Below are positions 3,851-35,100 of a stretch of 37,671 nucleotides of DNA, piece by piece. The stretch is from Patescibacteria group bacterium (GTDB lineage Bacteria > Patescibacteriota > Minisyncoccia > Phycocordibacterales > SBAW01): positions 1 to 37,671 of the forward strand of contig JBBTSH010000041.1 of NCBI GenBank assembly GCA_038064795.1. Direction: 5' to 3'. The notes under the pieces are model-generated. The model was not told the DNA's origin. It searched no databases and saw nothing but the letters and a program-made list of their open reading frames with translations. Both the position numbers and the translations under genes were made by a program. Each line of letters opens with the position of its first letter. Positions within the stretch are counted from its first letter, which is position 1.

Positions 3851-6226
3851 ATGCCCAAAGCGTATTTTGTTTTAATGATACATAACGAGGAGGATGCCAT
3901 TCCCTCGGTGCTCGCGAGCATCATGAGTGCAGAGCTGCCTGCGCGCTATGAGCGCCGGATTCTCGCCGTTAACGACGGCAGTGCCGATGAAAGCCAAGCC
4001 CTGCTCGAACGAGCGGCACAGTCCTTGCCACTGCAGATTATTTTCTACCCCACGCGCCAGGGCATGCCGGCGTCGTTTCGCGGGGCGTTCAAGCACCTTG
4101 AGCCCCACCTTACTGATGAGGATATCGTCTTTACTATGGAGGCGGATGCAACCAACGACATCGCCTGTGTGGCGCCGATGGTGCATGAAATAGAGCAAGG
4201 TGCCGATGTAGTCATCGCTTCCCGTTATGCGCCGGGCGCAATGTCGATAGGATTTCCTTGGTATCGGTTGTGGGGGAGCACCATAATCAACACGTTTCTG
4301 CGATTACTTTGGAATGTCCCGAACGTTACCGATTGCTCGGTTCTGTATAGAGTATATCGGGGGTCCGTCTTGCGGACCTATATCGCCGCCGATCTGCCCT
4401 TCGCCGCAAAAAAATCGTTCGCGGTTATTTCGGAAATCCTTCTTCAGATATCACGCTTTACTTCGAAATTTGCAGAAGTGCCTCTGCGCTACGACTATAC
4501 TTTGAAGAGAGGTCCTTCAAAGATGAAACTTTTTCAGACACTTTGGGAATATACGCGCATTACGCCGAGGACTCCTTTGCGCCGGCAGCCAATTTTTTGG
4601 ATTGCGGTCGGGGCATTTTTTTTGCGGTTGTGGGGGATTACCTACGGATTCCCAGACCTCGTGGTGCTCGATGAGCCCGCACTTACCCGCGGGGCGCTCA
4701 CCATGTTGAAACTCCCCACGCTTATTCCCGCTTTTCATCCAGCCGATTTCGCCACGATGTATTATCCGCCGTTCACGGCGTACCTATACCTCGTTGTTCT
4801 CGCCCCCGTCATGGGCCTTGGGTATCTGTTTTCGCATGCGCCAACAATCGGGCAGTATGCCACAGAGCTCATTCTTGACCCAACGCCCGCGTGGATAGCG
4901 ACACGCGCTGTTTCCGCTTTTATCGGCGCACTCACGGTGTATTTTTTAGGCAGACTCGCGGAGAGGATATATCCCGGGAGCGGTATCTTCGCGGCCGTAT
5001 TCTTGGCGACGAGCTTTTTGCATGTTGTCTTCTCCCACATAGCACGACATTGGACGCCCTCATTCCTTTGCATCGTCGGCTTGTTGTGGGCCGCCTACCA
5101 TATTTCCCATTCGGGCCAGAAGCGCTGGTATGTGCTCGCGGGCGGCTTTGGGGGGTTAGCCGTGGGTACCGGGGTTATCACGGGTGTCCTTATGCTTGCG
5201 CCCACCCTTGCTCACTTTTTGCGCGAAGGAAGATTCGTACAAAAACTTCAAAGCGGAGCTTTCTGGACTATGATCGGCATCACCGCTGCGTTAACCGCGC
5301 TAACGTTCGCGCTTCATCCGCTGATATTACAAAATTTGCTTGCAGGGCATGAAAACCAGGGGATTACGCTTGGGGCGGAGAAATCACTCTATGGTCTTAT
5401 GGAATTGGCGGTTTTCGAGACGCGGGATTTTGCGCAATCCGAAACAGTTATATTTATATTTGGATTAATAGGGTTGCCGTTTACGCTTCGCCGAGACCGT
5501 ACCTACGGAGCGGTTTTGGCTCTCACATCGCTCCTCACCGTACTGGCACTCTATCTTTTCCATTATTATCTTTTTCACTATGTGTCACTTATTCTGCCTG
5601 CATTCGTACTTTTTGCAGGGGCAGGGGTGTATGAAATAGTGCAGATGGCGCGCACACGGTCTGCAAAACTGGCACTCGCAGTACTTATTTTTGCTCTCCC
5701 CGTGCTTATTGCGTTTCGCTTCAGCTATCTTTGGACGTTGCCGGACACGCGGCACGAGGCACGGGCATACATAGAACAGAATATACCCCGCGAGGCGCGT
5801 ATCATTTCCTACACACCGAACATGAAAATAGTTACGCCAACCAAGGCGGCGCTTCGCGACCGGATTGCATTCGATCCCAGCTCATCGCGGCTGCTCGATC
5901 GTACGTTGCTTTCGCTCGCCACGTCGAGCTACCCCACGCCAGCATACCCGGTTTTTGAATTAGGGACCCTCTCTCTGGAAGGAGAAAAAAAATTAACACC
6001 CCAGTTTCTAAATTCTCAAAATTTTGTGTACGCGGTTGTTGATCGTTTCGCCACTCCATATCCGGCTCTTGAAGCATTGCTACAGAAGGGAAAAATCGTA
6101 GCGCGGTTTCCTATAAAAGGTTCAGCTACCGACATTCTTGATAACGAGTTCGGGGGACCCGCTCTTTCCGTGTTTGTGATGCGGCAGATGGGTCCGGAAA
6201 TCTGGATAGTACAATTGGGGCAATGA
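3851..6226 (+). CDS. Fusion protein: polyprenol-phosphate glycosyltransferase (GT2, DPM1/GtrB/ArnC-like) + multi-pass GT-C (PMT_2/ArnT-like) glycosyltransferase
   Basis: The N-terminal ~235 aa contain LMIHNEEDAIP, AVNDGSADES, TMEADATND and VVIASRY, which are GT2 polyprenyl-P-sugar synthase motifs. From about nt 4585 there are at least 10 hydrophobic segments. The first loop carries the GT-C acidic motif (WGITYGFPDLVVLDEPAL). Confidence 0.75.
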   Translation: MPKAYFVLMIHNEEDAIPSVLASIMSAELPARYERRILAVNDGSADESQALLERAAQSLPLQIIFYPTRQGMPASFRGAFKHLEPHLTDEDIVFTMEADATNDIACVAPMVHEIEQGADVVIASRYAPGAMSIGFPWYRLWGSTIINTFLRLLWNVPNVTDCSVLYRVYRGSVLRTYIAADLPFAAKKSFAVISEILLQISRFTSKFAEVPLRYDYTLKRGPSKMKLFQTLWEYTRITPRTPLRRQPIFWIAVGAFFLRLWGITYGFPDLVVLDEPALTRGALTMLKLPTLIPAFHPADFATMYYPPFTAYLYLVVLAPVMGLGYLFSHAPTIGQYATELILDPTPAWIATRAVSAFIGALTVYFLGRLAERIYPGSGIFAAVFLATSFLHVVFSHIARHWTPSFLCIVGLLWAAYHISHSGQKRWYVLAGGFGGLAVGTGVITGVLMLAPTLAHFLREGRFVQKLQSGAFWTMIGITAALTALTFALHPLILQNLLAGHENQGITLGAEKSLYGLMELAVFETRDFAQSETVIFIFGLIGLPFTLRRDRTYGAVLALTSLLTVLALYLFHYYLFHYVSLILPAFVLFAGAGVYEIVQMARTRSAKLALAVLIFALPVLIAFRFSYLWTLPDTRHEARAYIEQNIPREARIISYTPNMKIVTPTKAALRDRIAFDPSSSRLLDRTLLSLATSSYPTPAYPVFELGTLSLEGEKKLTPQFLNSQNFVYAVVDRFATPYPALEALLQKGKIVARFPIKGSATDILDNEFGGPALSVFVMRQMGPEIWIVQLGQ

Positions 6227-7053
6227 AGATTCTTCTTTTTGGAGGTTCGGGGATGGTAGGCAGCGAACTTACCTGTGCGCTTTCCTCGCATGAGGTCGTG
6301 GCGCCTCCGCATACCCATGTTGATATTTCCGATGCTACTGCAGTTGAACAGATAATCGCGAAAGAAAATCCTAATTTTATTATCAATGCGGCAGCGATTA
6401 TCAACATGAGCGCTATTGAGCAAGACCCAGCCTCTGCAATGCGGGTAAACGTTATGGGGGCGGCCGCAATAGCCCATGCCGCTGCCAAGGCCGCCACCCC
6501 TCAACTTTTGGTGAGTAGCAGCTACGTTTTTGGAGAGGCCGCCCAACCGTATGATGAGGATGCCGTAAAAAATCCCATTAATGCCTATGGAGAGACAAAA
6601 GCGGCAGCAGAAGATGCCGTTGCTGCCTGCAAGAGTAATGCTGCTCACTACATCGTGCGCACTTCATGGATCTACTCGACCTATCGCGACACGTTTGTGG
6701 ATGAGGTCGCAAAAACCTTACGTGAAGGTAAACCATTTGTTGCGTCACTACAGCGCGGCAATCCCACACAAGGTCGGGAGTTTGCAGTGACGATTATTAC
6801 AAATTTTATAGATTCCTCTTTGCCAAAGAGCGGTGTGTACCATGTCGTCAACGAAGGCTCCGCCTCACGCTACGAAATGGCGCGCGAAATCGCACGCACT
6901 TTGCACTTGCCCGAAACTCTCGTGACGTCGGATGACTTTCCCTCAAACGCAATACGTCCAAGCGTTGTACTCAAAAATACGAAACTCCCGCCGCTTCCGC
7001 CGTGGGAGGTGGCGCTTCGCCGGTACCTTGCGGTGCGTTACGCGCAAAAATAA
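6223..7053 (+). CDS. RmlD-family NDP-4-keto-6-deoxyhexose reductase (dTDP-4-dehydrorhamnose reductase-like)
   Basis: MKILLFGGSGMVGSEL (Rossmann), catalytic YGETKAAAE (YxxxK), and YIVRTSWIYS, which is typical of the RmlD substrate-binding domain. ATGA overlap with the upstream gene. Confidence 0.7.
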   Translation: MKILLFGGSGMVGSELTCALSSHEVVAPPHTHVDISDATAVEQIIAKENPNFIINAAAIINMSAIEQDPASAMRVNVMGAAAIAHAAAKAATPQLLVSSSYVFGEAAQPYDEDAVKNPINAYGETKAAAEDAVAACKSNAAHYIVRTSWIYSTYRDTFVDEVAKTLREGKPFVASLQRGNPTQGREFAVTIITNFIDSSLPKSGVYHVVNEGSASRYEMAREIARTLHLPETLVTSDDFPSNAIRPSVVLKNTKLPPLPPWEVALRRYLAVRYAQK

Positions 7054-7091: not shown

Positions 7092-7646
7092 TCAAGCGCA
7101 ACCATTGAGCGTAAAGCCCTTCTTGCGTTTTTGTTGGACTGTAGTGAAGAACTTTTCAAGCGACCGTTCAAACCCGGTTGCAGCCCCGGCCCGAAGCACA
7201 ATGCCGAGGAGTCCGTACAAGAGCCGGGTACGCCACCCACCGGTGCTCGCGACTGATACGAAGGAAATTTTTACGTTATTTTCTGCCGCACGCCTGCGCC
7301 AGATTGGTTTTCCTGCAAACAGATACCAGCCGGACGAGACCACGACAATCTCGCGTGCTTCCAGATGCGGGACGGTTTGGCATGCCGCGCGAGCTTCGGA
7401 AAACGTTCCGACGCCGCCATACAAGAGGCATAGCGATTCCTCAGGGACGCCGTTTTTAATGAACCAATCGCGCATGAGCGTGCCGAGCGTTGGTCCTTCC
7501 GCCGCGTAGGGTACGTCTCCGGATAACAGAATGACGTCGCCTGGTTTCCTAACGGTCAGAGTTGTGTGCATGCGAGAAATCGTCGTCCCGCACAGTTCGG
7601 TGGGAGCACTGAAGTGGCAGGGAATCGAAATGATAACTTTAGGCAT
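7092..7646 (-). CDS. DUF218 (YdcF/ElyC-like) domain protein
   Basis: GDVILLSGD...TLMRDWFIKNGVPEESL...GTFSEARAA...EIVVVSSGWYLF resembles the DUF218 pattern. I chose the internal ATG at 7646 (MPKVIIS...), which is preceded by AAGGAAAA, rather than the track start at 7706. Confidence 0.45.
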   Translation of the reverse strand: MPKVIISIPCHFSAPTELCGTTISRMHTTLTVRKPGDVILLSGDVPYAAEGPTLGTLMRDWFIKNGVPEESLCLLYGGVGTFSEARAACQTVPHLEAREIVVVSSGWYLFAGKPIWRRRAAENNVKISFVSVASTGGWRTRLLYGLLGIVLRAGAATGFERSLEKFFTTVQQKRKKGFTLNGCA

Positions 7647-7720
7647 GCAGGTTTTCCTTTTTTGTGGGGATCGTCCTGGAGTGAGTTGTACACTTAAGAA
7701 TGACATCTGGCAACCTGCAT

Positions 7721-7769: not shown

Positions 7770-10010
7770 ATGAAAAAAGCGCTTATTACGGGCATTACCG
7801 GGCAGGACGGATCCTATTTGGCGGAGTTACTTCTCAAAAAAGGATACGAGGTGCATGGGTTGGTACGCCGCTCAAGCACCTTCAACCGCCATAACATTGA
7901 CCACCTTTTCACCACCGATACCGTACGCCACCAACATCTCCACTATGGGGACATGGCCGATATGAACTCGCTCATGTCGATTTTAAAAAAAGTGCGGCCG
8001 GATGAAATTTATAATCTAGCGGCGCAGTCGCACGTAAAGATATCGTTTGAGGTGCCATCTTATACTGCACAGACAGACGGGCTCGGCGTTCTTTCTCTGC
8101 TTGAGGCGGTACGGTTACTAGGTCTCAACACCAAGATATACCAAGCTTCCACCTCAGAGCTTTACAGCGGGGAAAGGGCGCAAGCTCCCCAAAACGAAAA
8201 TACTCCGTTTAAACCGCGTAGCCCCTACGGTGCCGCAAAACTATATGCATTTCAAATTGCGCGCGTATACCGCGAGAGCTACGGCATGTTTGTGGTCAAC
8301 GGTATTCTCTTTAACCACGAGTCTCCGCGGCGCGGCATGAACTTTGTCTCCAGAAAGATTGCGCACGGTGTCTCTGAGATCGCCGCGGGCATCCGCGACC
8401 ATATCGAGCTTGGAAATCTCGATGCGGCCCGGGACTGGGGATATGCGCCAGAATATATGGAGGCCGCATGGGCCATGCTCCAAGAGGATAAGCCGCAGGA
8501 TTTTGTTATTGCGACCGGAGAAACTCATACCGTGCGCGAGTTTGTCGAAGCAGCTTTTGCACATATAGGCATTACTCTCCGTTGGGAGGGCAAAGGTTTG
8601 GACGAGGTGGGTGTGGACAGCATAAGCGGCCAGATACTGATAAAAATTGATCCAGAGTATTTTCGTCCGAATGAAGTGGAATATCTGCGGGGTGATGCGC
8701 ACAAGGCCTTTACCACATTTGGATGGAAGCCCCATACAACATTTTTAAAACTCGTGGAGATTATGATGGAGAGCGAGCTTCAAAAAATACCGGGGGCAAA
8801 GTCAAAAGTACGCAAACCTGATCGACGAATCGGCGTTGGATGCCTTGAGATTACCGATACGGAAAAGCGCTATGTAAACGATGTCCTCGACTCTGGACGG
8901 CTTTCGTACGGACCATATCTCAAGCGTTTTGAGCAGGAGTTTGCGCGCGCACATGACGCGCGCTTTGCCGTGATGGTCAACAGTGGTACAAGCGCGCTCG
9001 AGATGGCTGTCGCGTGTCTTAAAGAAGTCCATGGCTGGCAAGACGGCGACGAAATACTCTGCCCGGCGGTAACGTTTGTTGCGTCAAGTAACGTCATTCT
9101 TGCAAACAATCTCAAGCCCGTTTTTGTGGATGTAGACTCGCGTACCTACAATATCGACCCCACAAAAATTGAAGAAAAGATAACATCCCGTACGAGAGCT
9201 GTTATGGCGGTGCATTTGTTTGGACAGCCTGCGGCGATGGACAAGATACAGGATATTGCTCGCAAGCATAATCTGCGTATTATCGAGGACTCGTGCGAGA
9301 CGATGTTTGCCAAATATCAGGGTACCTCGGTTGGAGTAATGAGCGACATCGCCTGCTTCTCAACCTATGTGGCACACATTTTGGTCACGGGGGTAGGGGG
9401 GCTCGCGGTCACCAACGATCCAAGATATGCAGAAATTTTGCGTAGTTTGGCGAACCATGGAAGAGACAACATATATGTTTCGATTGATGATGATAAAGGT
9501 GCAACCGGTAAAGAGTTACAAGAAGTAATAGCCCGACGATTTAATTTTATCCGCCGCGGCTATAGTTACCGCGTGACGGAAATGGAGGGAGCACTAGGAT
9601 GCGCGCAACTTGAGCGTCATTCGCCGATGATCGCAAAGCGCAAAGAGAACGGAGCATACCTCAAAAAACATCTTAGTCAGTTTAAAGAACACCTGCAGTT
9701 GCCGTGGTGGCCGGAGCATGCGGACCATGTGTTCATGATGTTCCCCGTTGTTATCAAAGAAAATTCTCCCATACGCAAGGCTGACCTCACTCAATTTCTT
9801 GAAGAGCGGGGCATCGAAACACGGGATATGCTGCCGCTCATTAACCAGCCGTACCAGAGGGCTCTTTTTGGAGATCTTGAGGCGCAGTATCCGGTTGCCA
9901 CGTGGATAAACAACAACGGCTTTTATGTTGCCTCGCATCAGATGCTCACGCCCGAGGAGCGCGAGTATATTGTCGCGGTATTTGAGGACTTTTTCGCCAG
10001 CCGACCGTAA
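7770..10010 (+). CDS. gmd: Bifunctional GDP-mannose 4,6-dehydratase (Gmd) / DegT-family PLP/PMP enzyme with His in place of the Schiff-base Lys (ColD-like GDP-4-keto-6-deoxymannose 3-dehydratase)
   Basis: aa 1-~345 align throughout with Gmd ([72 protein letters not shown]). aa ~355-746 are DegT/DnrJ/EryC1-like ([35 protein letters not shown]). In the motif [15 protein letters not shown] the position of the conserved Lys is His536 (CAC, nt 9375-9377). Confidence 0.85.
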
Positions 10011-10037: not shown

Positions 10038-10493
10038 TTACGACTGAGACTCGTGGCGTTTCCACACCCACAGTCGATACCCCGTGTAATTTGATATGAA
10101 GCCCAAAAGTATTCCCATTGCGTATGCGGTGTGGATGAGTAACAAGTTTGCGGTGACTGACTCCGCAATGAATACGAAGAGCCATTGTATAAATAAAGAT
10201 CCGGCTACGACGACATGAAAGCGCAGAAGCCTCACATACAGCGGCGGCACGGCATTAATATGAGCATGAAAGGAGTATCGATTATTGAGAAAAAAGTTAC
10301 ACAATACCGCAACCTCGCCTCCAATAAGTGTTGCGGTTGAGAGTCGCACGAGCTCCAGATAGACGCCAAGCAGCTCAAAAAGAGCGGTTTGGACGACAAC
10401 CCCCAAGCCGCCTATTATTGCAACTCGCACGAGGCGCGAGCGAAACAGCGAAGTCGTAACCCGTTGCAGAAAGTCCATAGTCAATTTAGGCAT
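10038..10493 (-). CDS. GtrA-family membrane protein (putative polyprenyl-phosphate-sugar translocase)
   Basis: 151 aa with four hydrophobic segments. Contains VAIIGGLGVVVQTALFELL and NFFLNNRYSFH, the GtrA family signature. Confidence 0.75.
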   Translation of the reverse strand: MPKLTMDFLQRVTTSLFRSRLVRVAIIGGLGVVVQTALFELLGVYLELVRLSTATLIGGEVAVLCNFFLNNRYSFHAHINAVPPLYVRLLRFHVVVAGSLFIQWLFVFIAESVTANLLLIHTAYAMGILLGFISNYTGYRLWVWKRHESQS

Positions 10494-15475: not shown

Positions 15476-16267
15476 ATGAAAGTAGGCATTATCGGCGTGG
15501 GTATGGTTGGAGGCGCTATACGTCACGGTTTTTCCCGTATCGGTCACGATATACATGTGCACGATGTGAGGCTTCCGGGGACGTCGCTTGCAGACGCGCT
15601 TGAGACGGAAATCGTGTTTATCTGCGTGCCTACCCCTTCGCGCCCGGACGGTACGTGCGACACCTCAATTGTTGAGCAGGTAGTCAGGGAAATAGCGCGC
15701 GCGGGGTATCGCGGTTTGGTGGCAATCAAATCAACCGTCGAGCCCGGCACTACCGACAAGCTCTCCGCACGCCATCCAAACCTACGTCTTGCGTTTTGCC
15801 CCGAATTCTTGCGCGAAAAGGCTACCTATACCGACTTTGTCGAGCAGCATGATGTATGTGTTATTGGTGCGTACCGTGCTGAAGATTTTGAACTACTCAA
15901 ACGAGTACACGATCCGTTGCCGCAGCACTACGCCGAGGTGGCTCCCCTTGAGGCCGAGTTTGGAAAATATTTCCTAAACGTCTTTAATGCGCTGCGTATC
16001 GTGTTTGCCAATCAATTTTACGATGTGACGAAAGCGGCCGGAGCGGATTATCAAAAAATAAAGAATGCGATAACCAAACATCGCGCTGTACCGGCGGTGT
16101 ATCTCGACTGCAACGAGAACTTTCGTGGGTTCGGCGGCGCATGCTTGCCCAAAGACACAGCCGCATTTGCACAATTTGCAAAAAAAATGTTGGGTCCCGA
16201 TGCACCGCTCTCCTTGTTTGAAGGCATCGTCGAAATAAACAAACGCTATAAACAGACGGTTTTGTAG
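15476..16267 (+). CDS. Short UDP-glucose/GDP-mannose dehydrogenase-family protein (no C-terminal nucleotide-sugar-binding domain)
   Basis: MKVGIIGVGMVGGAI, FICVPTP, KSTVEPGTT, CPEFLREK, and catalytic-Cys motif GFGGACLPKDT about 45 aa before the stop. At 263 aa it is well short of the roughly 390-450 aa of canonical family members. Confidence 0.7.
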   Translation: MKVGIIGVGMVGGAIRHGFSRIGHDIHVHDVRLPGTSLADALETEIVFICVPTPSRPDGTCDTSIVEQVVREIARAGYRGLVAIKSTVEPGTTDKLSARHPNLRLAFCPEFLREKATYTDFVEQHDVCVIGAYRAEDFELLKRVHDPLPQHYAEVAPLEAEFGKYFLNVFNALRIVFANQFYDVTKAAGADYQKIKNAITKHRAVPAVYLDCNENFRGFGGACLPKDTAAFAQFAKKMLGPDAPLSLFEGIVEINKRYKQTVL

Positions 16268-18671: not shown

Positions 18672-19877
18672 ATGAAAATGACCGAGTGTCAGCTTTGCAA
18701 GTCAAACAAGTTAGAGCTCGTCCTCGATTTGGGCATGCACCCGCTCGCCGATACGTTTGTCAAAGACTCAATTGCCGCACGGGCACTCCCGCGCTATCCG
18801 CTCCAAGTATTGCTCTGCACCTCATGCGGCCATGCAATGAACTCCTATATTGTCCCTAAAGAACAGCGCTATCAGGAGCATGAGTACAGCTACGACTCGG
18901 CTAACTCCAAGGCCGCGGTCACACACTTCGACGAAATGGCGCGCGAAGTAAGTTCGAAATTTAACATCACGGCCGCAGATCTTGTCGTCGATATTGGCGG
19001 TAATGTCGGCACGCTCTTGCAGGCTTTTCATGCGCACAGCGGCGCGCGTATGCTCAATATTGAGCCGGCAGGCAATATCGCAACGATCGCGGAAAAAAAC
19101 GGTGTCCCCACGATCCGTGACTTTTGGAATGCTGATGCGGCGGATCGTGTTCTTGCTCAAGGCGGCGCCAAGGTAATAATCATCACCAACGCCTTTAACC
19201 ACATAGACGCGCTCGATGAATTTATGAGCAACATCTGCCGCTCTCTTGCCGCAGAGGGAGTTTTCGTTGCTGAGGTTCCGTATTTTCTGACCCTTGTACA
19301 ACGAGAGGCGTTCGACACCGTCTATCTCGAACATGTGTCTTATTTTTCCGTGCGTCCTTTGCGTTCTTACTTCCAAAAATTTGGACTCAGCATCCTCGAT
19401 GTTACACACAATGACTATATGGGCGGCTCGCTTCGTATCACCGTCGGTCGTGGTGCAGAAAGCTCAAAAGTGGTTGAGTATGTAGAACGCGAGGAAAAGG
19501 CAAGGTTGTTTGATTCAGACGCCTACGCCTCATTTCGCGATCGCGTCGCGGAATTTAAAAAGTCCTTGCTGCATGATCTGCGCGCTGCCAAAACCAGAGG
19601 CCGTATTATCGGCATTGGTGCGGCAACGAAAGGCAATACGCTGCTCAATTACTGCGGGATAGATAACACATTACTCGATTTTGTTACGGACGCTTCGCCG
19701 CTTAAGGTCGGCAAATTCACTCCGGGCTCGGGGATTCCGATACTTGCCGATGAAGCAATTACCGATGAGATAACGCATGCGCTCATCTTGCCGTGGAATA
19801 TTGCCGATTTGCTAAAGACAAAACTTTCCCCCCAATACCCAAAGCTTGCATTCATTATTCCTCATATGGCACCATAG
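18672..19877 (+). CDS. NDP-hexose C-methyltransferase (TylCIII/EvaC-like: Zn-ribbon + SAM MTase + C-methyltransferase C-terminal domain)
   Basis: The N-terminal CxxC...CxxC (CQLCKSNKLELVLDLGMHPLADTF...LLCTSCGH) is typical of this family. Also VVDIGGNVGTLL (motif I) and the C-terminal IIGIGAATKGNTLLNY...PGSGIPI. Confidence 0.7.
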   Translation: MKMTECQLCKSNKLELVLDLGMHPLADTFVKDSIAARALPRYPLQVLLCTSCGHAMNSYIVPKEQRYQEHEYSYDSANSKAAVTHFDEMAREVSSKFNITAADLVVDIGGNVGTLLQAFHAHSGARMLNIEPAGNIATIAEKNGVPTIRDFWNADAADRVLAQGGAKVIIITNAFNHIDALDEFMSNICRSLAAEGVFVAEVPYFLTLVQREAFDTVYLEHVSYFSVRPLRSYFQKFGLSILDVTHNDYMGGSLRITVGRGAESSKVVEYVEREEKARLFDSDAYASFRDRVAEFKKSLLHDLRAAKTRGRIIGIGAATKGNTLLNYCGIDNTLLDFVTDASPLKVGKFTPGSGIPILADEAITDEITHALILPWNIADLLKTKLSPQYPKLAFIIPHMAP

Positions 19878-23392: not shown

Positions 23393-23432
23393 CTTCATTG
23401 CTGCGAGGGAGGTTTAATACTAGAATCTCGCT

Positions 23433-24509
23433 ATGCGGTATTGCACACGATGCGTCCAACCGGACACCAGGCCCGGGATTAAGTTTAATGAGGCCGGAGT
23501 GTGCCCTGCCTGCCTCTATATGGAACAATTCGACTCCATCGACTGGGCAGCACGTCGCAAAGAGTTAGACCACATAATCGCTAATTCCAAAAAATCCAAT
23601 CACTCCGGTTACGACTGCATCATCGGTGTTTCGGGCGGCAAAGACAGCACTCGACAGGCCATGTTTGTACGCGACGTGCTCGGCCTCAAGCCTTTGCTAG
23701 TGTCATGTTCTTATCCTCCCGAGCAATTGACCGAACGCGGGGCGCACAACCTCTCGAACCTTATTTCTCTTGGTTTTGACACAATCACCATCTCTCCCGA
23801 CCCGCAGACGTGGAAGAAGCTCATGCGCAAGGGGTTTTTTGAATATGGCAATTGGGCAAAGTCGACCGAGACCGCCCTCTTTTCCACGCTTCCTAAGATG
23901 GCCATTGCCTATCATATCCCGCTTGTGTTTTTGGGAGAAAATCCGGCAACACAATTAGGTGACTTGGCGATTGGCTCGTTAAATTGGGATGCGAATCAGA
24001 TGCGTAATCAAAATACGATTTCGGCCGGCTCTGACATTTATTTGGGGGATGGAGTAACGGCCCAGCATCTGTTTTGGTACCGCTATCCCACCAGTGAAGA
24101 GTTCGAATGGGCGAATATCCAAATAGTATTCCTCGGTTATTTTTGGCCCAATTTTACGAAAGTGGATAATGCCGCTTTTTCGATAGCGCATGGGTTAGAG
24201 GTGCGTACCGATCGACCGGAGGAGAGGGGCTCCATCCATCCGTTTGAGGCGCTGGACGAGGATTTCGTGTTCGTTAATCAAATGATTAAATTTTTTAAAT
24301 ACGGTTTCGGCAAGGTTACGGATGAAGTGTGTGAGCTCATACGCTACGGCACAATGACGCGCGAGGAGGGGTTTGCGCTCGTCAAAAAGTATGACGGCAA
24401 GTGCGCGCCGGAGTATATTAAGCGCTTTTGCGACTATCTAGAAATTTCAGAAGACGAGTTCTGGCGCGTCGCCAACTCGTATAAAAAAGAATATGCCCCA
24501 GTCCTCTAG
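23433..24509 (+). CDS. N-acetyl sugar amidotransferase (WbuX/PseA/WbpG family, PP-loop ATP pyrophosphatase)
   Basis: N-terminal MRYCTRCVQPDTRPGIKFNEAGVCPACLY (Zn-ribbon-like) and PP-loop CIIGVSGGKDS. Confidence 0.8.
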   Translation: MRYCTRCVQPDTRPGIKFNEAGVCPACLYMEQFDSIDWAARRKELDHIIANSKKSNHSGYDCIIGVSGGKDSTRQAMFVRDVLGLKPLLVSCSYPPEQLTERGAHNLSNLISLGFDTITISPDPQTWKKLMRKGFFEYGNWAKSTETALFSTLPKMAIAYHIPLVFLGENPATQLGDLAIGSLNWDANQMRNQNTISAGSDIYLGDGVTAQHLFWYRYPTSEEFEWANIQIVFLGYFWPNFTKVDNAAFSIAHGLEVRTDRPEERGSIHPFEALDEDFVFVNQMIKFFKYGFGKVTDEVCELIRYGTMTREEGFALVKKYDGKCAPEYIKRFCDYLEISEDEFWRVANSYKKEYAPVL

Positions 24510-25131
24510 CACGCCCATACAAGTGTTGGTCATCGACTATGGTGTAGGAAACCACGGGTCGGTGGTCAACGCGCTCAAGCGGTTGGGTATTCGGTACGCG
24601 GTCTCTGCCCGTACGGAAGATATAGAAAAAGCTCCGGCATATATTTTGCCGGGCGTGGGGGCGTTTGCAGAGGCAATGCATAATCTCAAAAGACTCGGCA
24701 TCATCGATGTATTGCGTGAGCAAGTCATCGAGAAAAAAAAGCCCATTCTGGGCATTTGTCTTGGCATGCAAATTCTTGCAGATGACTCTAGCGAGAATGG
24801 GCAGCATGCGGGCCTGGGGTTTATCCCGGGACATGTGGTGCGGATCGAGAACAGTAAAGACATTCGAGTCCCGCATGTGGGGTGGAACGATTTAAAAATC
24901 CAGAAAAAAGATCCGCTATTTTTGCGACTCGACAAACGTATGCGATTTTACTTTGACCACAGCTATCAGTTTAAGACAGACGCAACATATGTGGCAGCAA
25001 CCTGTGAGTATGGTGAAATGCTTACTGCGGCCGTACAACATAAAAATATTTTCGGTGCGCAATTTCATCCTGAAAAGAGTCAAGTAAGCGGTCTGCGTTT
25101 ATTGCGGGCATTTTTTAACTATGCTGTCTAA
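24493..25131 (+). CDS. Glutamine amidotransferase subunit, HisH-like (WbuY-type)
   Basis: VLVIDYGVGNHGSV, GICLGMQIL (nucleophile Cys), PHVGWN, QFHPEKS (His/Glu). Confidence 0.85.
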   Translation: MPQSSSTPIQVLVIDYGVGNHGSVVNALKRLGIRYAVSARTEDIEKAPAYILPGVGAFAEAMHNLKRLGIIDVLREQVIEKKKPILGICLGMQILADDSSENGQHAGLGFIPGHVVRIENSKDIRVPHVGWNDLKIQKKDPLFLRLDKRMRFYFDHSYQFKTDATYVAATCEYGEMLTAAVQHKNIFGAQFHPEKSQVSGLRLLRAFFNYAV

Positions 25132-25990
25132 ACGGATTATCGGTAGTCTTATAGTTAAGGACGGCATCGTTGTGCAAAGCGTTGGTTTTGAACGTTATTT
25201 GCCCGTGGGTTCGCCCGAAATAGCGGTCGATTTTTTAAACCAATGGGGTATAGATGAAATTATCGTGCTCGATATCGGGGAAGCCCGCCTGAAGCGAGCA
25301 CCCGACTTTGCTTTGTTGGCCCGGCTCTCGAAGTTGAGTTTTGTGCCGCTCACTATGGGAGGCGGAGTGGACACCGTTGAAGTGATGCGCGAGCTCGTTC
25401 ATGGCGGCGCAGATAAATTTGTTATCAATCAAGCCGCGGTTGAAACACCGCAGATTATTAAGGAGGCAGCACGGATTTTCGGCAATCAGTGTGTTGTCGT
25501 TTCGATTGACGCAAAAAAAACTGATACTGGATATGAGGTGTATATACACGGAGGACAAACCCCGACCGGCAAAGATCCGGTGGTATTCGCAAAAGAATGT
25601 GCCGCGCTCGGAGCCGGGGAGATACTGATACGGAACGTTGGAAAAGACGGATCGAAAGAGGGCTACGATCTGGAACTCGTGAGAGCGGTCGCACGGGCGG
25701 TTGATATCCCTGTCATCGCGGCAGGCGGGTGCGGACATCCACGGCACATCCTAGAGGTCTTTACTAACGGTGAGGCGAGCGCAGCCGCCGTTGGAAATTT
25801 CTTTCATTTTACCGAGCATAGCGTTACGACCGCTAAAGCGTATCTGGAACAAGCTAAGATACCGGTTCGCCTCGACACATATACTGACTATAAAAATTTT
25901 ACTTTTGATGCAGATGGCAGGATACGCAAACAAGATGACGCGGTGTTGGAGAAACTCCGATTTGAATATCAGCCAAAAGAAGTCATATGA
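25121..25990 (+). CDS. HisF-like cyclase/ammonia-channel subunit (WbuZ-type)
   Basis: RIIGSLIVKDGIVVQSVGF, DEIIVLDI, VVVSIDAKK, GAGEILIRNVGKDGSKEGYD, IPVIAAGG. Confidence 0.8.
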   Translation: MLSKRIIGSLIVKDGIVVQSVGFERYLPVGSPEIAVDFLNQWGIDEIIVLDIGEARLKRAPDFALLARLSKLSFVPLTMGGGVDTVEVMRELVHGGADKFVINQAAVETPQIIKEAARIFGNQCVVVSIDAKKTDTGYEVYIHGGQTPTGKDPVVFAKECAALGAGEILIRNVGKDGSKEGYDLELVRAVARAVDIPVIAAGGCGHPRHILEVFTNGEASAAAVGNFFHFTEHSVTTAKAYLEQAKIPVRLDTYTDYKNFTFDADGRIRKQDDAVLEKLRFEYQPKEVI

Positions 25991-27237
25991 AATATTGTAC
26001 CCGCTGCGTATATCCGGCAAACCATCCTCTTAATCTCACCTTCGACAAAGATGGGGTGTGCAGCGGTTGCCGCGTCCATGAAGAAAAAGACATGCTTACT
26101 TGGGATGAACGTTTCCTAAAACTAAAGAAAATTACCGATTCGTATAAAAATCAATCCGGCAATAGTTACGATTGCGTAGTGCCGGTCTCGGGCGCTCGCG
26201 ATTCTTATTTTATTGTGCATACGGTAATTAAAAAGCTCGGGTTGCGTCCGCTTTTGGTAACGTATAACAAGCACTACAACACTGAACGCGGCATTAGAAA
26301 CCTGGCTTATTTGCGCACGCTTTTCGGGTGCGACATTCTCACCATGAACGTGAGTCCCGAGCGCGTAAAAAATGTTACCAGGGCTTCCTTACGTAAGATG
26401 GGCAGCATGTATTGGCACTGTCTTGCGGGGCAAACGGTTTTTCCCGTTCAGGTGGCGGTACGCTTTAAAATTCCACTTATTATTTGGGGAGTGCATCAGG
26501 GGATCGATCAGGTTGGGATGTTTTCGCACCTTGATGAAGTGGAGATGACCCGCAAATATCGCAAAGATCACGATCTCATGGGCTTTGAAGCCGAGGATTT
26601 AATAGATGAGAGTATGCACGTGACAGAGGATGACGTGCTGCCGTACCTCTACCCGCATGACAAAGAAATAGAGAAAGTCGGCGTACGGGGTATCTACTTA
26701 CAAAATTACATCCGCTGGGACAGCAAGGCGCAGCACGAGCAAATGATCAATGAGTATGAATATGAGAGCGCACCGCAGACACGGACGTTTGATACCTACA
26801 ACGATGTAGACTGTTTTAACTACTCGGACGTACACGACTATATAAAATTTTTGAAGTGGGGCTACAGTAAAATCACGGACCACGTGTCCCGTGAGATAAG
26901 ACTCAAGAGATTGACGAGAGACGAGGGGATAGAACTTGTGAAAAACTACTCGCTTCGTATGCCAAAAAATCTGCAGCTTTTTTTACGATGGATTGGAGTC
27001 GCCGAGAGCGGGTTTAATTACTTTATCGACGAGCGGCGCGACCCAACTGTGTGGCGAAAAAACGAAGACAGCGTGTGGGAGCTGAAGGACAGTGTCTTAA
27101 ATCATAGTAACGATGAAGGAGTAGACACGGTACGGCTTGATAAAAAGGAGGAGTGCAAATTCATCATCACACCCTCTAAAGTAACGGCTCCGGAAAAAGA
27201 AGACTATACGATAATCGGCAAAGGGTATGTTAATTAA
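25987..27237 (+). CDS. Second N-acetyl sugar amidotransferase paralogue (variant PP-loop SGARDS, longer C-terminus)
   Basis: MKYCTRCVYPANHPLNLTFDKDGVCSGCRVHEEK and CVVPVSGARDSYF. Shares architecture with 23433-24509. ATGA overlap with the upstream gene. Confidence 0.75.
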   Translation: MKYCTRCVYPANHPLNLTFDKDGVCSGCRVHEEKDMLTWDERFLKLKKITDSYKNQSGNSYDCVVPVSGARDSYFIVHTVIKKLGLRPLLVTYNKHYNTERGIRNLAYLRTLFGCDILTMNVSPERVKNVTRASLRKMGSMYWHCLAGQTVFPVQVAVRFKIPLIIWGVHQGIDQVGMFSHLDEVEMTRKYRKDHDLMGFEAEDLIDESMHVTEDDVLPYLYPHDKEIEKVGVRGIYLQNYIRWDSKAQHEQMINEYEYESAPQTRTFDTYNDVDCFNYSDVHDYIKFLKWGYSKITDHVSREIRLKRLTRDEGIELVKNYSLRMPKNLQLFLRWIGVAESGFNYFIDERRDPTVWRKNEDSVWELKDSVLNHSNDEGVDTVRLDKKEECKFIITPSKVTAPEKEDYTIIGKGYVN

Positions 27238-27745
27238 AGGCAATCGCGTATGTTTGCGCCCGTTGAAGCAAGGCGATGTGGGTGCGAGATACCTGCGCTG
27301 GATGAATGATCCGAAAGTGCAGGAGTATACACGCCGGCGCGGCATCAGGACGACACTCAAAGAGTTACAGTCATTTGTCACAGAAACAAAAAAATCTAAA
27401 AATCTATATTTTGCGATTCTGGTGGGCAAAAAGCATATCGGAAACTTGTTCTTGTACCTAGGAAAGAACAAGAGTGCAGACCTCTCTATTATGATCGGAG
27501 CGCGCAACGAGCAAGGTAAGGGCTATGCCAGCGAGGCGATTGGGGCGGCAAGCAAGTTCGCATTTGATCGGTGGGGCGTCTCTTCGCTGACGGCCGGCTC
27601 CGCAAATCCCGGCTTTAACGCCGTTATGCGAAAATTAGGATGGAAGCGCACCAAGGTAAAAAGAAAGGGCTTTGTGCTGGGGGCGCGGCGTCGGGATGTA
27701 GGATATTGGCGGATGGTAAAGAAAACCTATGCAAGAAGGAAATAA
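27227..27745 (+). CDS. GNAT-family N-acetyltransferase (RimJ/RimL/PseH-like)
   Basis: VCLRPLKQGDVGARYLRWMNDPKV...IGNLFL...GKGYASEAIGAASKFAFD. Confidence 0.65.
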   Translation: MLIKGNRVCLRPLKQGDVGARYLRWMNDPKVQEYTRRRGIRTTLKELQSFVTETKKSKNLYFAILVGKKHIGNLFLYLGKNKSADLSIMIGARNEQGKGYASEAIGAASKFAFDRWGVSSLTAGSANPGFNAVMRKLGWKRTKVKRKGFVLGARRRDVGYWRMVKKTYARRK

Positions 27746-28253
27746 TATATATCTGAGGCCGCTCGTCGAAGATGATTTCAATGATCGTTATTTAACGTGG
27801 TTCAAGGACGCGGAAGTCACTCGATTTTTAGAGGCGCGCAATATAACGCGGGAGGATGCCATAAAGCATCTGCACGATGGCGAAGATGGAAAGAACTGGC
27901 GGCTGTATGCGATCTGCGAAAAAGCGACCGAGAGGCATATCGGTAACATAAAAATAGGACCGATTGATTGGAAAAACGGAGTATCTGATCTGGTCACGGT
28001 GATAGGAGAGCGTGATGCGTGGGGCAAGGGCTACGCCAGAGAGGCAATCAAAAGGGGTATGGAGATAGCATTTGATGAATTGCACATTCGCAAACTTTCC
28101 GCGAGCATTGTGTCGGGGAACACGGGTTCGATAAAGGCGTATACCGCCGCCGGCTTTACCGTGGAGGCCACACTTAAAGATCAATATAAGGACGCTGCTG
28201 GTCAAATGTATGACAAGGTTTTTGTGAGCGCTTTTGCTCCTCTCAAGCAGTGA
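27729..28253 (+). CDS. GNAT-family N-acetyltransferase (RimJ/RimL/PseH-like), tandem paralogue
   Basis: IYLRPLVEDDFNDRYLTWFKDAEV...IGNIKIGPIDW...GKGYAREAIKRGMEIAFDEL...GNTGSIKAYTAAGF. Confidence 0.7.
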   Translation: MQEGNNIYLRPLVEDDFNDRYLTWFKDAEVTRFLEARNITREDAIKHLHDGEDGKNWRLYAICEKATERHIGNIKIGPIDWKNGVSDLVTVIGERDAWGKGYAREAIKRGMEIAFDELHIRKLSASIVSGNTGSIKAYTAAGFTVEATLKDQYKDAAGQMYDKVFVSAFAPLKQ

Positions 28254-28296
28254 CCTCAGGGTTGAAAAGGGCGTTATATCAGGGTAGGGTGGCCAT

Positions 28297-29058
28297 ATGT
28301 ATAAAGACAGGAGCGAGCGAATAGTGGCGACTATCGAGGCGCGGATGACCTCAACTCGTCTGCCCGGCAAAGTCTTGATGCCGCTTGTCGGTAAGCCGGT
28401 GCTGCAGCATATCATCGAGAGGCTCCAGCGTAGTCAGTACGTCGATGTCATCTGCCTGGCAACCACCACCAACAAGACGGACGACCCCACGGCAGCCCTG
28501 GCGGAAGATCTCGGGGTAGCGGTGTTTCGCGGCAGCGAAGAGGATGTGCTTGGCCGAGTACTCGGAGCAGCACAGTCAGTGCGGGCCGATCTCATTGTGG
28601 AGGTAAGCGGTGATTGCCCTGCAATTGACCACCGAGACATTGATCGCGGCATTGAAGAGTTTTTTAAAAGTGGTGCCGAGTATGTGGCAAACAATATTGA
28701 GGCCACCTATCCAACGGGCGGCTTTGAAGTAATTATCTTTCGGACATCTGCCTTGGCCGAAGTCGCGGCAATAGTCAAAGAACCGATATACCGCACCCAT
28801 GTTTCCTATTACTTTGCTACCCATCCTGAAAAATATCGGCAGCAAAATTTTAAGGCTCCGCTGAAAGCCACAGCCCCGGAACTTAGGGTGGTGCTTGATG
28901 AAAAGGCGGACTATGAACTGCTCAACAAAGTATTCGAGAGCCTTTATCCCCTCACGCCAGATTTCGGCGCTGAAGACGTTGTACAGTTTTTAAAAGCCAA
29001 CCCGCAAGTCGCAGCGCTTAATAGCAATGTACGAAGAAAAAAGGCCCATGAACTCTAA
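28297..29058 (+). CDS. Cytidylyltransferase, SpsF/acylneuraminate cytidylyltransferase family (CTP_transf_3)
   Basis: IVATIEARMTSTRLPGKVLMPLVGKPVLQHIIERL is the characteristic N-terminal motif of the SpsF-type enzymes. Confidence 0.65.
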   Translation: MYKDRSERIVATIEARMTSTRLPGKVLMPLVGKPVLQHIIERLQRSQYVDVICLATTTNKTDDPTAALAEDLGVAVFRGSEEDVLGRVLGAAQSVRADLIVEVSGDCPAIDHRDIDRGIEEFFKSGAEYVANNIEATYPTGGFEVIIFRTSALAEVAAIVKEPIYRTHVSYYFATHPEKYRQQNFKAPLKATAPELRVVLDEKADYELLNKVFESLYPLTPDFGAEDVVQFLKANPQVAALNSNVRRKKAHEL

Positions 29059-29902
29059 AAGACAATATACGGTGGCAATTATCGGGGCAGGTCGTATTGC
29101 TGCTTTTTTTGATACGCCGGCATCAACGCATATACTCACTCATGCACACGCGATTACGAAAAATTCCAGATTGAAACTCGTCGGGTTCGCAGACACGAAC
29201 GTACGGGCTGGCAGGGAAGCCGCGAAGGTGTGGAAGACATCGTTTTTTTCTTCCGCAAAAAAACTATTTACAGCGGCTAAGCCGGATATTGTGGTAATTG
29301 CTACTCCGGACAAGACCCACGTATCGCTCATGGTGGAACTTTCGAGGCTCAAACCACGCCTTATCATTTGCGAGAAACCCGTGGTCACCCGCAAAAGTGA
29401 CATTGCGAAATTGAAGAAACGGCGGTTACCGCCTGTTATTGTCAATTACTCGCGGCGCTTTGATCCTGTGGTGCAAAAAGTTGCCGGCGAAATAAAAAAA
29501 GGTCTCTGGGGCAAAATTATTGCCGCTCGAGGTATCTACACAGGCTCTTTACTGCACAACGGCTCTCACCTCGTCGACCTCGGACGGTTTCTTCTTCCGA
29601 ACGTCACGATACAGCTCACGGAAGGCGACGCGAAGGCATACTCGCTTTTTGAGCTTGATATCTTAACAAGCAAGGGCCGCCTGCGCTTTATAGAAAGCGG
29701 CCAAAAGTTAATGATCGAGCGACCGCACAAAGACCCGCTCTATAGGGGGTTTGTGACGCTCGGTCGTGCTTCCATACAAAAAACCGGACTCCATGATGCT
29801 TTGCCCAATCTTTACCGACATGCCATTGCGGTCTTGGATGGTAAAAAAAGTGCATCTCCTAACCTCACAGAAGCCCTAAAAACTGAAAGTGAAGTACTAT
29901 AG
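29048..29902 (+). CDS. Gfo/Idh/MocA-family NAD(P) oxidoreductase
   Basis: YTVAIIGAGRIAAFF, VVIATPDKTH, IICEKP. The start is ambiguous between 29027 and 29048. Confidence 0.6.
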   Translation: MNSKRQYTVAIIGAGRIAAFFDTPASTHILTHAHAITKNSRLKLVGFADTNVRAGREAAKVWKTSFFSSAKKLFTAAKPDIVVIATPDKTHVSLMVELSRLKPRLIICEKPVVTRKSDIAKLKKRRLPPVIVNYSRRFDPVVQKVAGEIKKGLWGKIIAARGIYTGSLLHNGSHLVDLGRFLLPNVTIQLTEGDAKAYSLFELDILTSKGRLRFIESGQKLMIERPHKDPLYRGFVTLGRASIQKTGLHDALPNLYRHAIAVLDGKKSASPNLTEALKTESEVL

Positions 29903-29906
29903 CGAT

Positions 29907-31115
29907 ATGTCGGAACTTGCAATCAATGGGGGGAAGGCCGTGCGCACCGCACCTTTCCCCCTGTACAACACGATAGGGAAGGAAGAAAAGAATGCCGTGA
30001 ACCGGGTTATGGACTCCGGCGTGCTCTCAAAATATATCGGTGTGTGGCATAAAGATTTTTACGGCGGAGTCGAGGTGCAGGCGTTTGAGCGTGAGTGGGA
30101 GAAGCGATTTGGAGTGAAGCACGCCATCGCCATGAATTCGGCCACCTCGGCACTCATCGCCTCTGTGGGTGCGCTTGGCATTAAGCCGGGGGACGAAGTG
30201 ATTGTAAGCCCCTATACCATGGTTGCTTCCGTTTCTTGTGTGTTGTGGTGGGGAGGTGTGCCTGTTTTTGCCGATATCGAACCGGAGTACTTTTGTCTTG
30301 ATCCGAAGTCCGTTGAAGCGGCAATCACCCCGCACACCAAAGCAATTATCGTCGTCGATATTTTTGGCGGCGTGTACGACGTCGAGCGAATTGCAGCGAT
30401 TGCAAAAAAACATAATCTCAAAATCGTAGAAGATGCCGCACAAGCCCCCGGTGCCAGCCACAAAGGCAAGGGCGCTGGCACGTTTGCCGATATTGGCGTT
30501 TATTCGCTCAATTTTCATAAGCATATACACACCGGTGAGGGCGGGGTGGCGGTTACTGAAGATGATGTTTTAGCAGAGCGGCTGCAGCTCATACGCAATC
30601 ATGCCGAAGCGGTGGTAGAAGCAAAAGGGGACCCCGATCAAAAACTCATTGGGCAAAACTACCGCCTGACGGAAATGCAGGCAGCGATAGGTCGTGAGCA
30701 ATTAAAAAAACTCGATGCACTGGTGGCACAGAGACGAAAAAATTGTGCGTATCTCGCAGAGCGTCTGCGCGATCTGCCCGGTATCGTGCCCGCGCCAGAG
30801 CGCGCGGGGAGCGAACATGTTTTTTATGTGCAGCCGTTCCTGTATGACGAAAAAATTGTCGGGGTAACGCGCAAACGCTTTATCGAGGCGCTCCTTGCTG
30901 AGCTGCCCGGGGCTTCAATTTCAGGCGGGTACGTCAAACCCATTTATCGAATGCCGCTTTTCGGTATAACCAAAGATCTGTGTCCTACCACCGAACGTCT
31001 CTACAACAGCGAACTTTTGCTGCATGAAATGATGCATCCAGGCATGAGTACAAAAGATCTCGATGACGTCATCGAAGCGTTTCATAAAGTATATCTTCAT
31101 CGAGACGAGCTATGA
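29907..31115 (+). CDS. DegT/DnrJ/EryC1/StrS-family PLP sugar aminotransferase (canonical Lys present)
   Basis: LAINGGKAVR, AMNSATSALIASV, GDEVIVSPYTMVAS, IVEDAAQAPGA, YSLNFHKHIHTGEGGVAVT. I chose the ATG at 29907, 5 nt after the upstream stop. The track start is a GTG at 29889. Confidence 0.8.
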   Translation: MSELAINGGKAVRTAPFPLYNTIGKEEKNAVNRVMDSGVLSKYIGVWHKDFYGGVEVQAFEREWEKRFGVKHAIAMNSATSALIASVGALGIKPGDEVIVSPYTMVASVSCVLWWGGVPVFADIEPEYFCLDPKSVEAAITPHTKAIIVVDIFGGVYDVERIAAIAKKHNLKIVEDAAQAPGASHKGKGAGTFADIGVYSLNFHKHIHTGEGGVAVTEDDVLAERLQLIRNHAEAVVEAKGDPDQKLIGQNYRLTEMQAAIGREQLKKLDALVAQRRKNCAYLAERLRDLPGIVPAPERAGSEHVFYVQPFLYDEKIVGVTRKRFIEALLAELPGASISGGYVKPIYRMPLFGITKDLCPTTERLYNSELLLHEMMHPGMSTKDLDDVIEAFHKVYLHRDEL

Positions 31116-35091: not shown

Positions 35092-35100
35092 GATACATTC

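Follow-up and report, generated by a model that had tools for sequence, protein, structure and literature searches.

A GDP-mannose 4,6-dehydratase fused to a lysine-less DegT-fold domain in a Patescibacteria bacterium: a probable two-step entry module for GDP-3,6-dideoxy sugars

The 37,671-nt stretch of DNA analysed here (contig JBBTSH010000041.1, assembly GCA_038064795.1 of a Patescibacteria group bacterium; called the window in the following) contains a gene in which a GDP-mannose 4,6-dehydratase (Gmd) is joined to a domain of the DegT/DnrJ/EryC1 fold. A first-pass annotation had proposed that a histidine occupies the Schiff-base lysine position of the second domain, that this domain corresponds to the 3-dehydratase ColD, and that the protein converts GDP-mannose into GDP-4-keto-3,6-dideoxymannose in one polypeptide. 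The computational analysis presented here suggests that the fusion protein probably performs the first two steps toward a GDP-3,6-dideoxy sugar destined for the cell surface, and it places the C-terminal domain in a separate, widespread His-type clade that is related to ColD and E1. The gene is composed as follows:

7770..10010, plus strand: complete Gmd-linker-His-type DegT fusion gene; a single open reading frame (ORF) with ATG start, 746 aa plus stop
7770..8804, plus strand: GDP-mannose 4,6-dehydratase domain, aa 1-345 (PF16363, 1.2e-135; TIGR01472, 496 bits; motifs)
8805..8840, plus strand: inter-domain linker, about aa 346-357, variable in sequence and length (junction alignment of P0002-P0008 and P0012)
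8841..10007, plus strand: DegT/DnrJ/EryC1-fold domain of the His-type 'clade A' (PF01041, 2.9e-95; clade alignment, AlphaFold2 model and phylogeny)

Both domain assignments of the first-pass annotation stood. In the 746-aa protein, Pfam detects GDP_Man_Dehyd at aa 5-332 (1.2e-135) and DegT_DnrJ_EryC1 (PF01041) at aa 361-737 (2.9e-95; 320 bits compared with a gathering score of 19.8). The N-terminal part also exceeds the curated cutoff of the NCBIfam equivalog TIGR01472 (gmd), with 496.1 bits against 415 and aa 2-339 covered, and the motifs of extended short-chain dehydrogenases/reductases (SDRs) are intact: GITGQDG (aa 8-14), STSE (aa 127-130), YGAAK (aa 153-157) and NHESPRRG (aa 182-189). The first three correspond to the nucleotide fold, the catalytic Thr/Glu and the YxxxK element of these enzymes. 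Judged by these scores and motifs, the N-terminal domain is a genuine, normal GDP-mannose 4,6-dehydratase.

A single reading frame runs through the junction of the two domains, and the two other frames contain stops. The Gmd-linker-DegT order is kept in P0002, P0003 and P0006, which are 80-82% identical to the window protein, in P0008 (56%) and in the longer proteins P0004 and P0005, and all of these (P0002-P0006 and P0008) come from independent ENA and JGI assemblies. The linker, ~15-35 aa long, has diverged among the relatives and is flanked on either side by conserved sequence. The conservation of a single ORF in diverged relatives from independent assemblies excludes, for practical purposes, that the fusion arose as a sequencing or assembly artefact. 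One 82% identical protein, P0012 (415 aa, from an NCBI Patescibacteria metagenome-assembled genome, MAG), has been called as a stand-alone gene, with a start inside the last Gmd helix (MMHSELGKIPG...), which suggests either a frameshift in the fusion gene of this MAG or an erroneous gene call.

The interpretation of the C-terminal domain depends on its catalytic strand and on several signature segments, which are located as follows:

9015..9053, plus strand: insert before the GDE motif, aa 416-428; 6-10 residues, in every His-type clade and in no Lys-type sequence aligned
9285..9299, plus strand: EDSCE, aa 506-510; the ED-x-C-[ED] form common to ColD and E1, where aminotransferases read EDAA[EQ]
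9357..9401, plus strand: active-site strand, aa 530-544; Ala-His as in E1, Ile (not His) after the His, and Val542 for the family Glu ('GEGG')
9375..9377, plus strand: codon CAC of His536 at the Schiff-base Lys position (alignments; 61/61 clade members and 63/63 clade loci of a genome scan)
9456..9548, plus strand: HGRD and an insert of ~25 aa, aa 563-593; matches the E1 segment with three of the four iron-sulfur cysteines, with no Cys here

In HMMER pairwise alignments His536 is matched with Lys186 of the GDP-perosamine synthase from Caulobacter (fsffgnKiittgegg) and with His220 of E1 (sfypaHhitmgegg), the position at which the first-pass annotation had placed it. The same annotation had read a lysine in the two other DegT genes of the window, and this, too, was borne out, since they show YSLNFHKHIHTGEGG and YSFHPVKSITTAEGG at the Schiff-base column. 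The mutant PDB entries 3b8x (ColD H188N) and 3bb8 (E1 H220K) identify the first His of the 'HH' pair as the catalytic residue, and according to reviews the 3-dehydratases that have been characterised (E1, ColD and SpnQ) are distinguished by a His in place of the Lys.

An alignment of the window's C-terminal domain with 60 stand-alone homologues of 54-82% identity yielded 61 invariant columns, among them the cofactor-binding residues. Invariant are His193 in domain numbering (equivalent to His536), the Asp and Glu residues of EDSCE (E163, D164 and E167), of which the Asp is expected to pair with the pyridine nitrogen of the cofactor, and furthermore the Ser of FS, the G-x-G-G after the His and the Arg of ETR. 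The clade can be described by the motif FSTYxAH[IL]xxTGVGG, in which Val stands where nearly all DegT enzymes carry the Glu of 'GEGG'. The sole nearly invariant lysine of the clade, Lys75 of the C-terminal domain, belongs to a CLKE insert 12 residues down the helix that starts at SGTSAL, and would thus sit away from the cofactor.

The ED-x-C-[ED] form and the insert before GDE were found in all His clades and in none of the Lys-type sequences aligned; they are derived characters common to clade A, ColD and E1. The iron-sulfur cluster of E1 has no counterpart in the alignment: the window domain has Asn, Tyr and a further non-Cys residue where E1 has Cys251, Cys253 and Cys261, and the C-X57-C-X1-C-X7-C pattern of the [2Fe-2S] site is absent. 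Only the first of the E1 cluster cysteines is kept, within EDSC, and ColD carries that Cys as well. For five 'specificity sites' discussed in the literature, the window domain agrees with ColD in having Glu where E1 has Asp194, and with E1 in having Ala where ColD has Ser187 (a residue described as not conserved among dehydratases); the E1-Tyr217 site is occupied by Tyr, the catalytic site by His and the E1-Phe345 site by Met.

Neighbour-joining (NJ) trees were built from the DegT domains of the database hits, the aminotransferases of the window itself, and ColD, E1 and perosamine synthase (Per) sequences reconstructed from PDB alignments. Clade A was monophyletic with 100% bootstrap support, all His-bearing sequences formed one group (89-93%), and the ColD-type and E1-type sequences together were the sister of clade A (81-82%). 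Clade A grouped with the perosamine synthases in 0 of 300 replicates. In a second NJ tree, enlarged by 17 more distant relatives (ten of them Lys-type) that a scan of species-representative genomes had supplied, the monophyly of all His-bearing sequences reached 96%. This tree also contained a small sister clade, A' (L071, L073, L075, L076 and L077, from Omnitrophota and Planctomycetales MAGs; A+A' bootstrap 72%), with the motif FSLYAAHI[IV]TTIEGG, which has His-Ile as clade A does and retains the Glu of 'EGG'. By its motif, clade A' is apparently an evolutionary intermediate.

The identification with ColD proposed by the first-pass annotation was not upheld. The ColD-type clade, including PDB entry 2gms, was itself 100% monophyletic with the window's clade outside, and the window domain lacks the 'HH' and 'EGG' signatures. 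The clade profile scored 284 bits against GDP-perosamine synthase, 278 against E1 and 235 against ColD, whereas the ColD-type domain of an archaeal fusion protein (P0027, motif SFSFYFGHHMTTIEGG) scored 288 bits against 2gms and 134 against perosamine synthase, indicating that the window domain is not a ColD orthologue. Membership in E1/RfbH did not result either: NF011936, although the best NCBIfam match of the domain, gave 247.9 bits compared with a cutoff of 423. The AlphaFold2 model of the domain was confident (pLDDT 94.5, pTM 0.92; the HGRD insert, aa 563-593, was the part with the lowest confidence), and Foldseek aligned it with many PDB structures of the DegT family at TM-scores of 0.82-0.89. 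Perosamine synthase superimposed with a root-mean-square deviation of 1.7 A and a query TM-score of 0.86-0.87, E1 with 0.89 and ColD with 0.83-0.87; hence, the comparison of the model with the PDB did not separate dehydratases from aminotransferases.

The domain therefore has to be compared with three known enzymes. It would work most like ColD, and yet by sequence falls outside ColD proper, E1/RfbH and the aminotransferases. With ColD/WbdK of E. coli O55 (2gms) and the GDP-heptose C3-dehydratases of Campylobacter jejuni it shares the DegT fold, a His at the Schiff-base Lys and the lack of iron-sulfur cysteines, and also ED-x-C-E, the pre-GDE insert and the Arg conserved for binding the amino acid. 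In both cases a Gmd-type enzyme would supply the GDP-linked 4-keto-6-deoxy substrate, which for the window is suggested by gene context, and an SDR would then handle the 4-keto group. The differences concern the catalytic strand and its surroundings, where ColD has Ser187-His188-His189, MEGG and SGSTAN and the window domain Ala535-His536-Ile537, GVGG and SGTSAL; the separate clade; the covalent fusion to Gmd; and the reductase, which is the GDP-fucose-synthase-like ColC in the ColD pathway and RmlD-like here. E1 (also DdhC, RfbH or AscC; 3bcx) was the best single-sequence PDB match, full-length with 185.7 bits, and shares Ala-His, a Tyr three residues before the His and the long insert after G-R-D, but it has the [2Fe-2S] ligands Cys251/253/261, uses CDP-sugars and requires an E3 partner, whereas the window domain lacks these cysteines, is joined to a GDP-sugar enzyme and has no E3. 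GDP-perosamine synthase (Per/RfbE; Caulobacter 3bn1 and 3dr4) would share the substrate GDP-4-keto-6-deoxymannose and resembles the domain in the highest profile score (284 bits), the lowest deviation (1.7 A) and 44% identity in the N-terminal half, and Per-type fusions with Gmd exist; it has, however, a catalytic Lys, neither of the two inserts, EDAAEA and GEGG, and the window domain differs at all of these points. With regard to architecture, deoxy-sugar steps have likewise been joined by gene fusion in the bi- and trifunctional UDP-rhamnose synthases and in ArnA. Those combine an SDR with another SDR or a formyltransferase, while here an SDR is combined with an enzyme of fold type I that would depend on pyridoxamine 5'-phosphate (PMP) and, in relatives, with a terminal reductase.

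Fusions of Gmd were counted among the 120 best database hits. Gmd::clade-A fusions occurred 7-8 times and the reverse order once (P0009), fusions of Gmd with a true ColD-type domain ~20 times in both orders (mainly metagenomic, the few named members being DPANN archaea), fusions with a Lys-type perosamine-synthase-like domain 3-4 times and a Gmd::E1-like fusion once, and such fusions carry the plain label 'GDP-mannose 4,6-dehydratase'. These counts indicate that Gmd has been joined repeatedly to the next enzyme. The first-pass annotation had supposed a fusion of this kind to be undescribed; no description of a Gmd-3-dehydratase fusion, or of clade A, was found in the literature searched, but the architecture is not unique, given the several types of Gmd::DegT fusion. 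P0004 and P0005 (1042 aa) extend it to an RmlD-like::Gmd::DegT triple fusion that is syntenic with the window (loci L004 and L005). Together, the two fusion orders (P0001-8 and P0009) and the triple fusions provide Rosetta-stone evidence that ties clade A to Gmd. Two further proteins were observed in this survey. P0031 (762 aa, on an ENA contig of 4.6 kb) is a Gmd::E1-like fusion, with a His-type domain, the motif IAHNVQVGELG and the Cys-rich insert CVCDICRRNEGKC, and may be an iron-sulfur E1-type dehydratase for a GDP-sugar. P0044 (1213 aa, on an NCBI contig of 390 kb) is a single protein made up of Gmd, a B12-binding/radical-SAM domain and a DegT domain of the Lys type.

In the window the fusion gene is part of the order GT47-like, GT2::PMT_2, RmlD-like reductase, small minus-strand ORF, fusion gene and GtrA (minus strand), and the same gene order was found in the relatives at 82% identity. 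The neighbours with a presumed bearing on the pathway are:

3851..6226, plus strand: GT2::PMT_2 (GT-C) fusion, 791 aa (family scan; syntenic in L004-L007)
6223..7053, plus strand: RmlD-like NAD(P)H 4-ketoreductase, 276 aa (PF04321, 8e-60; TIGR01214, 183 bits, below the cutoff of 224)
7092..7706, minus strand: conserved small ORF, 204 aa as listed (65% identity, E = 1e-92, to L006:5414-5965)
10038..10493, minus strand: GtrA-family small membrane protein (PF04138, 4e-14; directly downstream of the fusion in all close relatives)

The RmlD-like protein is the candidate third enzyme of the pathway; in the triple fusions P0004/P0005 the N-terminal domain matches it at 43% identity. The small ORF, which probably begins at Met21 (nt 7646) and would then encode 184 aa, matched no Pfam or NCBIfam family; in L006 and L007 it holds the same place, with the RmlD-like gene on one side and the Gmd::DegT gene on the other, and it is absent from L004 and L005, where its two flanking genes are fused into one. 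GT2::PMT_2 is a candidate polyprenyl-phosphate sugar synthase and periplasmic-side transferase and GtrA a candidate flippase for the lipid-linked sugar, so that the two look like a Gtr/Arn-type module of lipid-carrier sugar synthase, flippase and outward-facing transferase. No RmlC-type cupin epimerase, ColC-like enzyme or mannose-1-phosphate guanylyltransferase was found in the window, and an E3-like gene turned up neither in the window nor in the related loci.

Several other sugar genes were recorded on the same stretch. An NDP-sugar C-methyltransferase (PF08421, PF08484) is encoded at 18672-19877 (plus strand), with counterparts at L004:1-213 and L031:339-1667; such genes recur near clade-A genes, as a neighbour cluster of 7 loci and among the downstream neighbours (3 of 41). 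Such an enzyme could plausibly act on a 3-deoxy-4-keto sugar, which hints at a branched-chain sugar. Two ORFs, at 6-1283 and 15476-16267 (both plus strand), contain only the N-terminal and central domains of UDP-glucose/GDP-mannose dehydrogenases; the first is fused to the C-terminal half of a GT1, and its counterpart at the same place in L004 is a 654-aa GT1::UDPG_MGDP_dh protein, an unusual architecture. The region ~23400-37535 (plus strand) holds a nonulosonic-acid-type cluster with PseB-like (34081-35091) and PseC-like (35101-36228) genes, a class-III aminotransferase, a CMP-sugar-type cytidylyltransferase, two GNATs, a HisH/HisF-like pair, an AMP-binding enzyme, and a GFO/IDH/MocA oxidoreductase followed by a Lys-type DegT gene (29889-31115).

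The scan of species-representative genomes returned at least 595 relatives, of which the best 80 loci were analysed; 63 of these belong to clade A and come from uncultivated Candidate Phyla Radiation (CPR) bacteria, DPANN archaea, Latescibacterota, Acidobacteriota, Elusimicrobiota, Omnitrophota and other lineages. The clade spans many phyla and is almost confined to MAGs, and the databases list its members as 'GDP-mannose 4,6-dehydratase', 'perosamine synthetase' or 'DegT family aminotransferase'. The commonest immediate neighbours detected by Pfam scans were SDR/Gmd-type genes (14/35 upstream, 8/41 downstream). On two unrelated long contigs (L001, L003) a stand-alone clade-A gene is followed by a true gmd (523-531 bits) and an SDR of ~300 aa, and an SDR of the same type follows the reverse fusion P0009. 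In L089 (65-2389), clade A is fused to a perosamine-synthase-like Lys-type aminotransferase (P0018), followed by a GT2 and a true gmd, with no reductase; an aminotransferase partner in place of a reductase suggests that clade A hands on a keto-sugar, and this locus may encode a single-operon pathway to a GDP-4-amino-3,4,6-trideoxyhexose. In the loci that can be read in this way, Gmd would supply the substrate and a separate reductase or aminotransferase would take care of the 4-keto group that is left, an arrangement to be expected of a 3-dehydratase and not of an aminotransferase.

Taken together, we consider a ColD-like, PMP-dependent 3-dehydratase that lacks an iron-sulfur cluster and is recycled by glutamate to be the best description of the C-terminal domain, with a probability of roughly 0.65. 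The Gmd domain would convert GDP-mannose into GDP-4-keto-6-deoxy-D-mannose. Because His536 replaces the lysine, an internal aldimine would be impossible in the DegT domain, and by analogy with ColD its PMP would condense with the 4-keto group to a ketimine; His536 would abstract the C4' proton and also assist the loss of the 3-OH. Hydrolysis of the resulting enamine would give GDP-4-keto-3,6-dideoxy-D-mannose and ammonia, and L-glutamate would return PLP (pyridoxal 5'-phosphate) to PMP, for which the conserved Arg of ETR is kept. Neither an iron-sulfur cluster nor a reductase partner would be needed in the 3-dehydration step. The RmlD-like reductase, encoded upstream and fused in relatives, would then reduce C4 to yield a GDP-3,6-dideoxyhexose, and GT2::GT-C and GtrA would, by their family annotations, use a polyprenyl phosphate carrier to deliver the sugar to a surface glycan. 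The domain identities, the catalytic His, the missing iron-sulfur cysteines, the position in the trees and the gene context are observations; from the His, the phylogeny and the context we infer the 3-dehydration, and we likewise infer the cofactor cycle, the stereochemistry at C4 and the fate of the sugar. GDP-4-keto-3,6-dideoxymannose, made by one polypeptide as the first-pass annotation had it, is still the most likely product. The lack of an RmlC-type epimerase and a ColC-like enzyme in the window makes a 3,6-dideoxyhexose of the D-series likelier than L-colitose. L-colitose was considered as the end product and found unsupported, with neither an RmlC-type cupin epimerase nor a mannose-1-phosphate guanylyltransferase in the window.

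A number of observations speak against a 3-dehydratase. The residue after the catalytic His is Ile or Leu in clade A, where every characterised 3-dehydratase has His, and the Glu of 'EGG', likewise present in all of these, is replaced by Val. The segments SGTSAL and HxFMMFP (with Met at the E1 Phe345 position) are aminotransferase-like. Profile and fold searches rank perosamine synthase level with or above E1 and ColD, and the N-terminal half of the domain is nearest to perosamine synthase, with 44% identity compared with 34-36%. Most of the tree support comes from the C-terminal half (82%), the N-terminal half being unresolved at 20%, and the trees are NJ trees with a limited reference set. 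A true gmd lies within 4 kb at only 15 of the 63 genome-scan loci, as counted with a Gmd-specific profile that under-detects SDRs, and in 11 loci clade A is fused to a GT2-like extension, recalling the aminotransferase-then-GT2 logic of ArnB/ArnC.

The substitutions in the catalytic strand raise the question whether the reaction starts like that of a 3-dehydratase and ends differently, with the nitrogen kept (a 3-deoxy-4-amino product), an epimerisation or an additional partner, the changes of Glu to Val and of HH to H[IL] marking the new outcome. That these substitutions are clade-specific and nearly invariant, that clade A' with its retained Glu and His-Ile points to a stepwise divergence, and that a sugar C-methyltransferase recurs near clade-A genes would all fit this explanation. 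Nothing positive indicates other chemistry, however, and the conserved reductase and aminotransferase partners suit a plain 4-keto-3,6-dideoxy product, so that we regard a different ending as unlikely.

A second explanation, which we judge rather improbable, is that the domain acts as a lysine-less aminotransferase, in which PMP derived from glutamate aminates C4 to a GDP-perosamine-like or 4-epi product without 3-deoxygenation. The likeness to GDP-perosamine synthase in sequence and fold, which equals that to E1 and exceeds that to ColD, the SGTSAL and HxFMMFP segments and the 11 loci with GT2-like fusions are compatible with this possibility; moreover, the His-type enzyme SpnQ is reported to have aminotransferase activity in some conditions, and the fusions with Lys-type DegT domains make a Gmd-aminotransferase fusion a common design. 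In contrast, the characterised members with His at the Lys position are all 3-dehydratases according to the literature, and clade A never joined the perosamine synthases in the NJ trees. Consumption of the keto group would also leave the fused 4-ketoreductase of P0004/P0005 without a substrate, and the Lys-type aminotransferase in P0018 would be redundant.

It appears highly improbable that the domain is of the E1 type and relies on an E3-like or ferredoxin-type reductase to reduce a 3,4-ene intermediate. E1 is the best single PDB sequence match and has the highest query TM-score, Ala-His is as in E1, and RfbH is the best NCBIfam match of the domain; but the RfbH score of 248 bits stays well under the cutoff of 423, the fused Gmd supplies the substrate in place of a CDP-glucose dehydratase, no E3-like gene accompanies clade A in the window or the related loci, and the absence of three of the four iron-sulfur cysteines leads us to reject the mechanism itself. 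That two genes were joined by a sequencing or assembly error, or that the DegT domain is an inactive relic, can practically be set aside, since against the stand-alone call of the 82% identical, 415-aa P0012 stand the continuous frame with stops in the other two, at least 7 diverged relatives from independent assemblies that keep the fusion, and the 61 invariant columns, cofactor-binding residues included, together with the confident model.

Beyond the ColD-like 3-dehydratase favoured above, a broader scenario can be put forward as a tentative and rather doubtful possibility. Clade A might be a third, ancient and widespread lysine-less PMP lineage whose chemistry goes beyond that of ColD, with an altered fate of the 3,4-ene or an altered stereochemistry marked by the loss of the EGG Glu and the second His. 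Combined with an RmlD-type reductase that lacks a 5-epimerase partner, it could lead to a GDP-linked 3,6-dideoxyhexose of the D-series, such as GDP-tyvelose or the 4-epimer of this sugar, or to a C-methylated derivative. A sugar of this kind is not known to have been described, and CPR bacteria would mount it via a Gtr/Arn-like lipid carrier, some lineages having all three steps in one polypeptide.

To our knowledge, the sugar 3-dehydratases studied so far comprise only the E1, ColD and SpnQ-type lineages, all of them from cultivated bacteria. Clade A points to a further large family related to these enzymes, and with its catalytic His kept and two strand residues altered it provides a natural test of what determines dehydration as opposed to transamination. 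The Gmd fusions and the triple fusions with a reductase are ready single-polypeptide modules for GDP-3,6-dideoxy sugars, and they suggest channelling of the labile 4-keto intermediate. The finding is a lead for enzymology and annotation and introduces no new principle. As for annotation, the current labels hide what is likely to be a dideoxy-sugar pathway serving the surface glycans of microbes that are ultra-small and host-attached.

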